Positions 21,395 to 24,211 of a DNA stretch of 64,000 nucleotides are shown one piece after another. The stretch lies in assembly GCA_045803515.1 (NCBI GenBank), contig JBJMOX010000341.1, forward strand, positions 4,180 to 68,179, given 5' to 3'. The notes beneath the pieces are model-generated. The model saw nothing but the letters and a program-made list of their open reading frames with translations. It had not been told where the DNA came from and ran no database searches. This stretch comes from Gemmatimonadales bacterium (GTDB taxonomy: Bacteria; Gemmatimonadota; Gemmatimonadetes; Gemmatimonadales; GWC2-71-9). The position numbers and the translations under genes are program-made. Numbering within the stretch: the first letter of the stretch is position 1; each line of letters starts with the position of its first letter.

Positions 21395-22482
21395 CCACTG
21401 AGCGCCCCACGACTTTGCTTGCGGAGATCACCCACCGCTGTCCCTTGCATTGCCCCTACTGCTCCAACCCGCTGGATCTTCTCCGGGCGGACAGCGAGAT
21501 CGGCACCGAGGACTGGAAGCGAGTCTTCAGCGAGGCCCGCGAGCTCGGGGTGCTGCAGCTCGGCCTGTCGGGCGGCGAGCCGCTGGTGCGCAAGGACCTC
21601 GAGGAGCTGGCGATCCACGCCAGGAGTCTGGGGCTCTACACCACCCTGGTGACCTCCGGGCTCGGTCTCACCCGAAAGCGGGCGGAAGCGCTGCGTGCGG
21701 CCGGGCTGGAGCACGTGCAGATCTCGATCCAGGATTCGGATCCAGTGTCGGCCGAGCGGATCGCGGGAGTGAGCTCGGTCAAGCAGAAGCTGGCGGCAAT
21801 CGCTCTGGTGAAGGAGCTAGGCTTCGCGTTCTCGGTCAACGTGGTGCTGCATCGCGCCAACCTCGACCGGATCGGGGAGATCATCGATCTCGCGGCGAGC
21901 CATGGCGCGGACCGCCTCGAGCTCGCCAACACCCAGTACTACGGGTGGGGGCTCAAGAACCGGAGCTCGCTGATGCCGTCCAGGGAGCAGGTGCTGGCCG
22001 CGAAGGAGATCGCCCAGGATCGGATGCAGCGCTACAAGGGACGGATGCAGATCACCTTCGTGCTGCCCGATTACTTCGAGGAGCTGCCCAAGGCCTGCTA
22101 CGGCGGGTGGGGTCGGTACTACATCGTGGTCTCTCCCGACGGGAAGGCGCTGCCGTGCCACGGGGCTTACGCGATTCCCTCGCTCGAGCTCCCCAGCGTG
22201 CGGGAGCACTCGGTGCGGTGGATCTGGCACGAATCGTCCGCCTTCCAGGCGTTCCGGGGCGATTCGTGGATGAAGGAGCCGTGTCGCAGTTGTCCTCGAA
22301 AGGCCATCGACTTCGGGGGCTGCCGCTGCCAGGCACTCGCGCTCACGGGCGACGCGGCGAACGCCGATCCGGTCTGCACGCTGAGCCCCTTCCGCCATCT
22401 GATCGACGAGGCGCTTGAGGGGCACGCCGGCGCCGACGAGTACGCTTACCGGGAAATCGCGGCCGAGCCCCTGCGCGCGTGA
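21391..22482 (+). CDS. pqqE: Radical SAM/SPASM enzyme PqqE
   Basis: The CPLHCPYC cluster motif (CxxxCxxC) lies near the N-terminus. C-terminal auxiliary Cys cluster (CRSCPRKAIDFGGCRCQA). 363 aa. Confidence 0.92.
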   Translation: MTTERPTTLLAEITHRCPLHCPYCSNPLDLLRADSEIGTEDWKRVFSEARELGVLQLGLSGGEPLVRKDLEELAIHARSLGLYTTLVTSGLGLTRKRAEALRAAGLEHVQISIQDSDPVSAERIAGVSSVKQKLAAIALVKELGFAFSVNVVLHRANLDRIGEIIDLAASHGADRLELANTQYYGWGLKNRSSLMPSREQVLAAKEIAQDRMQRYKGRMQITFVLPDYFEELPKACYGGWGRYYIVVSPDGKALPCHGAYAIPSLELPSVREHSVRWIWHESSAFQAFRGDSWMKEPCRSCPRKAIDFGGCRCQALALTGDAANADPVCTLSPFRHLIDEALEGHAGADEYAYREIAAEPLRA

Positions 22483-23405
22483 GCGCGACATCGCCGGCGA
22501 TCGTCACCCGTGGTCTGGGACGTGACTACGGGGAGGTTCGGGCGCTCGAGGCGCTCGATCTCGACGTGCCGGTCGGCTCGCTGGTCGGCCTGCTGGGCCC
22601 CAACGGCGCGGGCAAGACCACAGCGATGCTGCTGCTGGCAACACTGCTCGCCCCGTCCCGGGGGGGTGCCCGCCTGTTCGACCATGACCTCATCCGGGAG
22701 CGCCGCGCCGTCCGGCGGCGGCTCGGCCTGGTCTTTCAGGAGACCAGCGTCGACGGGCTCCTCACGGTGGAGGAGAATCTCCGCTTCGCCGCGCGGCTGG
22801 CCGGCCTCAGCGGGGCCGGGATGCGTCTCGCAGTCAGCGCGGCGATCGATCGTGCGGGCCTGGGCCCCCGCGCCGCACAGCCCGCACGGCAGCTCTCCGG
22901 GGGCTGGCGCCGATTGGTGGACATCGCGCGGGCCACCCTGCACCGCCCCGAGCTGCTCATCCTCGACGAGCCCACCGTCGGACTCGATCCCGAGCACCGC
23001 GAGCTGATCTGGACCATCCTCGCCGGAGAGCGGCGGGACCACGGCACGACCGTGCTGTTCTCGACTCACTATCTGACAGAGGCAGAGCCCGCTGACCGGG
23101 TAGTCCTCCTGGCCCGCGGACGGGTGGTGGCGAGCGACACCCCCGCCGCGCTTCGTGCCGGTGTGGGAGACGAGGTCGCCGAAATGGATGGGCCGGGTGC
23201 CGAGCGGCTGGCCCGCGCGCTCCGTGGCCTGGGATGCGTGGTTACCCTGCTGAGGACCGAGCGGGGCTTCCGGGTCGGCTTGAGGGGCCAGCGCGACGCC
23301 GTGGTGGCGCTGACCATGGAGGCAGCCGGAATCGAGCGCCTGGCCCTTCGTCCCGCCACCCTGGAGGATGCCTACTTCGCCCTCACCCAGCCAGAGCTCG
23401 CATGA
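22479..23405 (+). CDS. ABC transporter ATP-binding protein (ABC-2 exporter type)
   Basis: Walker A GPNGAGKTT, signature LSGGWRR, Walker B LLILDEPT. The GTG start overlaps the pqqE stop (GTGA). Confidence 0.9.
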   Translation: MSATSPAIVTRGLGRDYGEVRALEALDLDVPVGSLVGLLGPNGAGKTTAMLLLATLLAPSRGGARLFDHDLIRERRAVRRRLGLVFQETSVDGLLTVEENLRFAARLAGLSGAGMRLAVSAAIDRAGLGPRAAQPARQLSGGWRRLVDIARATLHRPELLILDEPTVGLDPEHRELIWTILAGERRDHGTTVLFSTHYLTEAEPADRVVLLARGRVVASDTPAALRAGVGDEVAEMDGPGAERLARALRGLGCVVTLLRTERGFRVGLRGQRDAVVALTMEAAGIERLALRPATLEDAYFALTQPELA

Positions 23406-24211
23406 GCGTGGCGAGCACCATCTACGGGATCGTCGCCCGTGATCTCGCGCGAACCACCCGCCAGACCAGTCGCCTCCTGGGTGGCCTGGCGCGTCCCTTC
23501 ATGTGGCTCCTGCTGGTCGGCACGGGGTACAACGCGATCGCCCGGTTGGAGAACGGCATCTCCTACCGGGCGTTCGTCTTTCCCGGGGTCGTCATCATGG
23601 CGTCCCTCTTCGGTGCCATGTTGACGGCGATCGCGACGGTCTACGACCGCGAGTTCGGGATGCTCCGTCTCATGCTGGCGAGTCCCGCGGGTGTGCCCGC
23701 GGTCCTCATGGGCCGGGCTCTCGCCGCGGCGCTGATCGGATTCACCCAGGGAGCCGTCGTGCTCCTCTTCGCGCCTTTGGTCGTGCCGGGGTCGGGATCG
23801 GCACTGCTCGCCGGGGCTGCGGCGCTGGCCCTCTCCTCCGCCAGCAGTGCGATGCTGGGATTGCTTGTGGCCGCCCGGTTGACCTCGGTGGAGAACTTCG
23901 CCGGAGTGATCAACGTGGTGCTGTTTCCACTGCTGTTCGTAAGCGGCGCGCTCTATCCGACCAGCGGAATGCCCCGCGTCCTTCGCGCGCTCGCCCGGGT
24001 GAACCCGGTGACCTTCCAGGTCGATCTCATGCGACATGCCTTCCACCAGCCGGTGGAGTTCAGCCCGACGACGGGGGTGCTGGTGCTGGCGGCGACGATC
24101 ATCGTGGCGTTCGGACTCACCGCGTGGCTGTTCGATCCGGAGCAGCGGTTTGTCGGGAGAGTGACTAGGGGCAGGCCGTCGGCTGGGGCGCAGCCAGGCG
24201 GGAAAGCGTGA
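23402..24211 (+). CDS. ABC-2 type transporter permease
   Basis: 269 aa with about 6 TM segments. The ATG overlaps the ATPase stop (ATGA). Typical ABC-2 layout. Confidence 0.8.
   Translation: MSVASTIYGIVARDLARTTRQTSRLLGGLARPFMWLLLVGTGYNAIARLENGISYRAFVFPGVVIMASLFGAMLTAIATVYDREFGMLRLMLASPAGVPAVLMGRALAAALIGFTQGAVVLLFAPLVVPGSGSALLAGAAALALSSASSAMLGLLVAARLTSVENFAGVINVVLFPLLFVSGALYPTSGMPRVLRALARVNPVTFQVDLMRHAFHQPVEFSPTTGVLVLAATIIVAFGLTAWLFDPEQRFVGRVTRGRPSAGAQPGGKA

Follow-up and report, generated by a model that had tools for sequence, protein, structure and literature searches.

An ABC-2 transporter pair translationally coupled to pqqE is a candidate exporter of pyrroloquinoline quinone

Bacteria make pyrroloquinoline quinone (PQQ) in the cytoplasm and move it to the periplasm, with nothing cited for this step beyond secretion candidates from a single Gluconobacter omics study (PMC12124388). 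An applied paper still credits PqqB with PQQ transport, an outdated idea (PMC11503474). Direct support from biochemistry and structure exists for just one membrane transporter of PQQ, the TonB-dependent importer PqqU (YncD; PMC12124388). Among ATP-binding cassette (ABC) transporters, the closest described systems are PedA1A2BC and LutAEF, which have been assigned to lanthanide uptake from mutants of Pseudomonas putida and Methylorubrum extorquens (PMC6839425, PMC7391723). The reading of PedA1A2BC as an importer rests on its binding protein (PMC6839425). META1p2359 of M. extorquens AM1, an ABC protein without a binding protein, has been hypothesised to export PQQ to the periplasm (PMC7391723). 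Here, we describe an ABC ATPase and an ABC-2 permease that are encoded directly behind pqqE in a 64,000-nucleotide stretch of DNA (the window) from a Gemmatimonadales bacterium (GenBank assembly GCA_045803515.1, contig JBJMOX010000341.1, positions 4,180 to 68,179). The original prediction, made from the letters of the window, regarded the inner-membrane export of PQQ as not firmly assigned, and the searchable literature agrees (PMC7391723, PMC12124388, PMC11503474). The full-text literature returned nothing on an arrangement of pqqE with ABC-2 genes; a mention in a 2012 comparison of pqq operons or in the Zhu and Klinman 2020 review is possible.

The two ABC genes complete a seven-gene unit, pqqA-B-C-D-E-ATPase-permease (Table 1). 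PqqB, PqqC, PqqD and PqqE all score above the NCBIfam equivalog cut-offs and PqqA contains the Glu-x3-Tyr element, which identifies the unit as a pqq biosynthetic operon. The TGA stop of pqqE (22480-22482) overlaps the GTG start of the ATPase gene (22479) in the sequence GTGA at 22479-22482, and the TGA stop of the ATPase gene (23403-23405) overlaps the ATG start of the permease gene (23402) in the sequence ATGA at 23402-23405. Both overlaps had been noted in the original prediction, and its structural description of a translationally coupled seven-gene unit ending in an exporter-type ABC-2 pair is correct. Within the ATPase open reading frame (ORF), no start codon precedes GTG 22479, and alignments to family models begin at residue 4-8. 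The permease gene ends at 24211. An NCBI-annotated protein of 269 amino acids (P0001), which comes from a Gemmatimonadales metagenome-assembled genome, matches the permease read from 23402 with 100% identity and coverage; a longer permease ORF from 23234 was rejected as a gene, the end-to-end match fitting the 23402 start. Along the unit, 52 bases separate pqqA from pqqB and 11 bases separate pqqB from pqqC, followed by four 4-base overlaps in a row up to the permease. A sigma-70 promoter scan of 19000-25100 gave no match. At third codon positions, the two ABC genes have the same G+C content (0.84-0.85) as the pqq genes and are therefore compositionally native.

To place the pair in a wider context, we ran a 6-sequence permease alignment (a 15-sequence version was too divergent) against one genome per GTDB species and searched the best 80 loci with the Pqq and ABC proteins of the window. 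In a search of representative sequences, the permease had one or two full-length clusters of at least 60% identity, followed by a gap down to 46% or less. A contiguous, one-strand pqqBCDE-ATPase-permease array is present in every Gemmatimonadales locus with upstream DNA (60-79% permease identity). The same array is found in a second Gemmatimonadota clade (44-46% permease identity; loci L025, L027, L028, L035 and L048), where a kinase and a sigma-54 activator are encoded upstream as well, in four Actinomycetota/Solirubrobacterales loci (35-40%) and in two Methylophaga loci of the Methylophagaceae (33-34%). Across these four permease clades, pqqE lies immediately upstream on the same strand in all 26 loci with upstream DNA, and the surveyed loci contained no permease of these clades that is unlinked to pqqE. 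Additional linked cases are L084, from a metagenome-assembled genome labelled Porticoccaceae, and L085, which encodes P0375 (NCBI name M. aminisulfidivorans), the left flanks of these two being different, together with L086 and L087, a Conexibacter locus and an unassigned locus. PF08042 (PqqA) was called in L084 at a position equivalent to that of pqqA in the window. When defined as an ATPase and a permease right after pqqE, on the same strand and without a binding-protein gene, the group consists of the window plus 45 other loci, which come from Gemmatimonadota, Actinomycetota, Methylophagaceae and, in 16 cases, metagenomes.

The coupling is also mostly conserved. In 27 of 30 related loci, the sequence offers a start codon that overlaps the stop of pqqE, and in 24 of 31 it offers the 4-base overlap of ATPase and permease genes. 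The flanks vary by clade, containing von Willebrand factor A genes of the mxa type, xoxF-type PQQ dehydrogenases or two-component systems, and the unit stays intact. In Actinomycetota, the pair sits between pqqE and a gene for an M19 dipeptidase or an M17 leucyl aminopeptidase, giving the order pqqBCDE-ATPase-permease-peptidase (L021 9974-12672; L086 8001-10701; L087 8001-10480; L111 3650-6063). Since the operon runs on into the peptidase gene, the transporter is embedded in the biosynthetic operon and does not just trail it. Actinomycetota permeases often consist of two ABC-2 domains fused in tandem, as in Solirubrobacterales and Conexibacter, where the length is 559-572 amino acids. Genes for PQQ-dependent dehydrogenases (PF01011) adjoin ABC-bearing pqq units in L021 (3429-5072, minus strand), L085 (1-3534) and L087 (11591-13855, minus strand). 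In the supplements of a Methylophaga thiooxydans transcriptome, pqqB, pqqD and pqqE were present and no gene matched the terms "ABC-2" or "daunorubicin". A survey of how often the pair follows pqqE across phyla had been suggested as a check on the original prediction. It is positive, with the pair behind pqqE in Gemmatimonadota, Actinomycetota and Methylophagaceae, and this rules out a simple hitch-hiker. The alternative of an unrelated hitch-hiking exporter is thus poorly supported, because the link is kept down to 33% identity, in three phyla, through changing flanks and probably independent origins, and together with the coupling.

We further characterized the two proteins by family and fold. 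The permease matches PF01061 (ABC2_membrane) with 93.1 bits against a gathering score of 26.9, and the ATPase matches PF00005 with 99 bits against a gathering score of 25. Walker A (GPNGAGKT), Q-loop, signature (LSGGW), Walker B (LLILDE) and H-loop (STH) motifs are intact in the ATPase, which by these motifs appears to be competent, with the catalytic Glu in Walker B. The nearest solved sequences to the ATPase are the nucleotide-binding domains of ABCA proteins (E = 3e-62). The AlphaFold model of the permease, characterized by a pLDDT (predicted local distance difference test) of 87.2 and a pTM (predicted template modelling score) of 0.85, contains six membrane helices. Its top Foldseek matches in the Protein Data Bank (PDB) are all type V exporters, namely ABCH-9C, ABCG25, ABCG2, ABCG1, KpsM, Wzm, TarG and NosY, and the permease is predicted to adopt the fold of a type V ABC exporter.

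The original prediction took the named accessory pqq genes not to include ABC-2 exporters. It did not consider a PQQ-associated ABC-2 family that exists already (PedB/PedC with PedA1/PedA2; TIGR03864 and TIGR03861) and is the nearest described relative. The window pair lies outside the cut-offs of that family. The ATPase scores 221.5 bits against its best NCBIfam model, drrA TIGR01188 (cut-off 312.45), and 208.4 bits against the PedB-type model TIGR03864 (PQQ_ABC_ATP; cut-off 302.25). The permease scores 139.3 bits against its top NCBIfam match, the PedC model TIGR03861 (cut-off 241.35), and 131.1 bits against drrB TIGR01247 (cut-off 223.05). The pqqE-coupled permeases of all four clades are below the PedC and DrrB cut-offs. 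True PedC permeases are present in L073, L077, L083, L038 and L046 (377-434 bits). L073 contains a canonical Ped system, consisting of a TIGR03863 binding protein, a TIGR03866 beta-propeller, PedB and PedC, in which the ATPase reaches 339.5 bits on TIGR03864. We used the PedA1 and PedA2 proteins of L073 as tblastn queries. Of 24 PedC loci, 12 contained homologues of both, whereas the 46 pqqE-linked loci, the window included, gave no hit to either. As the binding protein behind the importer reading is missing, the window pair has the architecture of an exporter. PedA2 YVTN beta-propeller homologues (26-37% identity) lie a few kb from ABC-less pqq operons in the metagenome loci L143, L162, L164, L165 and L166, which suggests that the propeller protein is linked to PQQ independently of the transporter.

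A bootstrapped neighbour-joining (NJ) tree placed the four coupled clades and PedC on one side and the DrrB-like pumps on the other, with a split support of 92.5%. Each linked clade is well supported (0.92-1.0); their joint monophyly has a bootstrap of 2%, and the branching among them and PedC is weak. A search for clade-specific residues found that only L74, L229 and E247 are common to the four linked clades and absent in PedC and the DrrB-like pumps, and these residues have no obvious mechanistic meaning. The sampled DrrAB-like relatives form a separate group in the tree and never adjoin pqq. The nearest unlinked relatives are ordinary DrrAB-type pumps under a PadR regulator. Radical SAM genes about 3 kb upstream of several unlinked actinobacterial relatives raised the idea that exporters are generally linked to clusters for peptide maturation. 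This idea was rejected, the radical SAM protein being MoaA and the pump a bona fide DrrA with PadR regulation.

We propose that the pqqE-coupled ABC pair is a dedicated PQQ exporter, a proposal to which we give an even chance. Cofactor export is the most economical function because a type V exporter without a binding protein is tied to the last genes of a pathway whose product must exit the cytoplasm. The transporter would be of type V (ABC-2, DrrAB-like), presumably with two ATPase and two permease subunits. It would probably be expressed from the same sigma-54-dependent transcript as pqqABCDE, with its synthesis tied to that of PqqE via the stop/start overlap. It would belong to ABC-2 lineages that are known only directly behind pqqE, with PedBC/LutEF as the nearest described relative. 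Driven by ATP, the pump would carry finished PQQ from the cytoplasm, the site of PqqC, to the periplasm for use by quinoproteins, and in the monoderm Actinomycetota PQQ would be exported to the cell exterior. Export may also keep a redox-active quinone out of the cytoplasm. The pqqE-coupled pumps could further be the first dedicated inner-membrane PQQ exporters and a new family, with the PedBC/LutEF importers as a diverged branch of one lineage; this is possible, but we would lean slightly against it.

Several points weigh against a dedicated PQQ exporter. We infer the substrate and the direction of transport from gene order, coupling, conservation across phyla, exporter fold, ATPase motifs and the missing binding protein, and the nearest characterized relatives, PedA1A2BC and LutAEF, are assigned to lanthanide uptake (PMC6839425, PMC7391723). 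The predicted helices TM2 and TM5, the equivalents of which line the substrate cavity in ABCG-type pumps, have no conserved basic residues as an evident match for a tricarboxylate. In E. coli, pqq clusters without a transporter gene give active periplasmic quinoproteins and secreted PQQ, and thus a dedicated exporter is not strictly required. The distribution of the pair among pqq operons counts in the same direction. Scanning metagenomes with a PqqE alignment gave 80 loci with 51-94% identity to the PqqE of the window, and downstream genes were counted where at least 1 kb of DNA lies beyond pqqE. The ABC pair follows pqqE in 14 of the 61 metagenomic pqq operons counted in this way and is absent in 47, two further loci carrying it as truncated cases. 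Ten of the counted loci have a PqqE of at least 65% identity, and only four of these ten contain the pair. In L091, L096 and L100, pqqE is followed directly by the convergent secreted-protein gene of the window, with the ABC pair missing, and L091 and L100 also share the pyrroline-5-carboxylate dehydrogenase gene of the window. The two ABC genes behave as a clean insertion/deletion unit among close relatives. Because the same flanks adjoin without the ABC pair, the pump is dispensable or replaced in L091, L096 and L100.

In the PqqE tree, the operons with the ABC pair fall into three adjacent clades, namely the two of Gemmatimonadota and that of Actinomycetota, and the distant Methylophaga clade and L167 are also ABC-bearing. 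The ABC-less L091, L096, L098, L100 and L106 are nested inside ABC-bearing clades. This distribution fits at least two independent associations of the pair with pqq and several losses. The genes after ABC-less pqq operons are heterogeneous (aminotransferases, metallo-beta-lactamase fold proteins with SoxYZ, two-component systems, an NMT1-type importer and one sugar-type major facilitator superfamily (MFS) protein) and show no pattern that would point to a substitute exporter at the same position. The ABC module is accessory, with roughly a quarter of the sampled pqq operons having it. Since it is also missing in some close relatives, it is not the general PQQ export route, and because many pqq operons are without the module, other routes must exist. 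The original prediction of a plausible undescribed export component is therefore upheld in synteny, coupling and exporter fold, and has to be narrowed in that the pair is not a general route, has a known relative in PedBC and is connected to PQQ as a substrate by deduction.

Other functions have to be weighed against PQQ export. The pair could have a role like that of Ped/Lut, moving a lanthanide, calcium or a metal chelator for PQQ dehydrogenases and being co-regulated with cofactor synthesis. Consistent with such a role, the linked clades group with PedC against the DrrB-like pumps (92.5% NJ bootstrap), PedC is the top NCBIfam match of the permease, the Methylophaga unit adjoins xoxF-type dehydrogenases and mxa accessory genes, and true Ped systems adjoin pqq operons in L073, L077 and L083. 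However, the PedB and PedC scores are far under the cut-offs (208 versus 302 and 139 versus 241), and the binding protein and beta-propeller behind the importer reading (PMC6839425) are missing in 46 of 46 linked loci. Taken together with the Actinomycetota pair being embedded between pqqE and a peptidase gene, and with all solved structures of the permease fold being exporters or extruders, this makes a metal role improbable. Among the surveyed loci, the four clades were never found apart from pqqE, and the link holds down to 33% permease identity across three phyla with changing flanks and the coupling kept, while the nearest unlinked relatives belong to a separate DrrB-like group with PadR-type regulation. 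It is thus unlikely that the pair serves general efflux of drugs or metabolites in the manner of DrrAB, without a specific role in PQQ biology, and that a few lineages fixed it by chance behind the last gene of the operon, even though DrrA is the best model for the ATPase, the Solirubrobacterales ATPase exceeds the DrrA cut-off (318 versus 312), and the pair was lost in several relatives without visible replacement, no substitute exporter being found among the genes after ABC-less operons.

The cargo could also be derived from PqqA, as a leftover peptide, an intermediate or a complex with an operon peptidase, and not be finished PQQ. In Actinomycetota, the gene for the M19 dipeptidase or M17 leucyl aminopeptidase overlaps the permease end, and an M17 aminopeptidase is needed for methanol growth of M. 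extorquens and has been suggested as a PQQ processor (Roszczenko-Jasinska et al., PMC7391723). However, the Gemmatimonadota and Methylophaga units are without a peptidase gene, and ABC-2 pumps are without a peptidase domain, unlike peptide-processing ABC exporters. In the established pathway, proteolysis is followed by the cytoplasmic steps of PqqB and PqqC, to which an exported intermediate would be lost. We regard a PqqA-derived cargo as quite unlikely.

Table 1 Features of the pqq unit and its upstream region in the window.
Feature	Position	Strand	Evidence or description
Sensor histidine kinase (HAMP-HisKA-HATPase)	16177-17634	+	Pfam domains
NtrC-type sigma-54 activator (receiver, AAA+ sigma-54 interaction domain, Fis-type helix-turn-helix)	17631-19067	+	Pfam
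Sigma-54-type promoter-like element TGGCAC-N5-CTGCA	19204-19219	+	About 110 nt upstream of pqqA; putative function
pqqA	19329-19403	+	24-residue precursor MKWTKPEAEVVAVTMEVTAYVATL; E-x3-Y core (EVTAY) read from sequence
GC-rich hairpin (11 pairs) and T-run in the 52-base pqqA-pqqB gap	19419-19444	+	Terminator-like scan
pqqB	19456-20361	+	TIGR02108, 354.7 bits (cut-off 245)
pqqC	20373-21125	+	TIGR02111, 310.5 bits (cut-off 240)
pqqD	21122-21394	+	TIGR03859, 82.3 bits (cut-off 46)
pqqE, radical SAM/SPASM enzyme	21391-22482	+	TIGR02109, 521.9 bits (cut-off 381)
ABC ATPase, 308 aa, DrrA/ABCA-like, C-terminal extension of about 80 residues	22479-23405	+	PF00005
ABC-2 permease, 269 aa, six transmembrane helices	23402-24211	+	PF01061

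The region upstream of pqqA indicates how the unit may be controlled. The genes of the sensor histidine kinase and the NtrC-type activator overlap by 4 bases. Such a kinase and response regulator pair is encoded directly upstream of pqqB in most Gemmatimonadota loci (54-77% identity), and the activator is 70-81% conserved in related loci. A kinase/activator block upstream of pqq spans 16177-19219 in the window, including the promoter-like element, and is also seen in L001, L005-L013, L019, L025-L035 and L048. This pair is the likely regulator of the pqq unit. The TGGCAC-N5-CTGCA element is the sole match in the 64-kb window (chance expectation 0.13), and the same strict motif is present 200-235 nt before pqqB in L008, L013, L035 and L048 as well. 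Judged by the element and the activator, the pqq operon appears to be sigma-54 dependent. The hairpin between pqqA and pqqB is possibly an attenuator, or a stabilizer of a short pqqA message.

Convergent to the permease gene, 24165-24950 on the minus strand encodes a protein of about 260 amino acids, which starts with a stretch resembling a signal peptide and matches neither Pfam nor NCBIfam models. Homologues of this gene are present in 21 loci (e.g., L001 10794-11498 and L091 1852-2562) with 40-60% identity, and in Gemmatimonadales it lies directly after the pqq unit, with or without the ABC pair. Directly upstream of the kinase/activator/pqq block, 11378-16112 holds a tripartite efflux operon like EmrAB-TolC, with genes for a TetR regulator, an OEP outer-membrane factor, an HlyD-type adaptor and an MFS pump of the 14-helix type; the equivalent position in L001 contains TetR and MFS genes. 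That this operon passes PQQ over the outer membrane would be pure speculation. An M16 peptidase gene (883 amino acids, two-domain, insulinase-type) at 7450-10101 on the minus strand was rejected as PqqF, with 71.7 bits against a cut-off of 320; it lies 9 kb upstream of pqqA and its product is more like YfmF-type proteins. An SBP_bac_11 gene at 27019-28209 was likewise rejected as a cognate binding protein, because it is encoded on the other strand at a distance of 3 kb and is missing from the syntenic L001. No PQQ-dependent dehydrogenase gene (PF01011) was found among the larger ORFs scanned in the window.

A pump that is tied physically and translationally to pqqE in three phyla offers a clonable candidate for the inner-membrane step of PQQ transport. 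The Methylophaga carriers are culturable and E. coli can be given pqq clusters together with the pair, so that PQQ export is directly testable. If the pair is a dedicated PQQ exporter, the PQQ pathway would be complete in the carrier lineages, strains for PQQ overproduction would gain a handle, and light would be shed on the origin of the related Ped/Lut lanthanide transporters. If this is refuted, the two genes would still represent a conserved accessory part of the pqq operon, for which current annotation gives just "ABC transporter".

The comparison with described systems sets the window pair apart from each of them. PedBC of Pseudomonas putida and LutEF of Methylorubrum extorquens resemble it in combining an ABC-2 permease and a DrrA-like ATPase with a genomic tie to PQQ. 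However, in Ped/Lut the tie is to a dehydrogenase cluster and not to the biosynthetic operon, a binding protein and a propeller are present, and the systems are read as lanthanide importers. META1p2359 differs, by its description (PMC7391723), in fusing ATPase and membrane domain and in being encoded far from the pqq genes. PqqU is an outer-membrane beta-barrel of another sequence and fold class, which works in the opposite direction and serves organisms without PQQ synthesis of their own. The solved type V exporters (ABCG2, ABCG25, ABCH-9C, KpsMT, WzmWzt, TarGH and NosFY) share the fold of the window permease, with query-normalized TM-scores of 0.57-0.68 and a Foldseek probability of 1.00, but their identity to it is 11-22% and their substrates are lipids, polysaccharides, drugs and abscisic acid. 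The daunorubicin/doxorubicin pump DrrAB is, like the window pair, a two-gene ABC-2 system without a binding protein, the genes of which follow a biosynthetic cluster, and its exported product is a planar polycyclic quinone. It differs in that the cluster neighbouring the window pair makes a cofactor and not an antibiotic.

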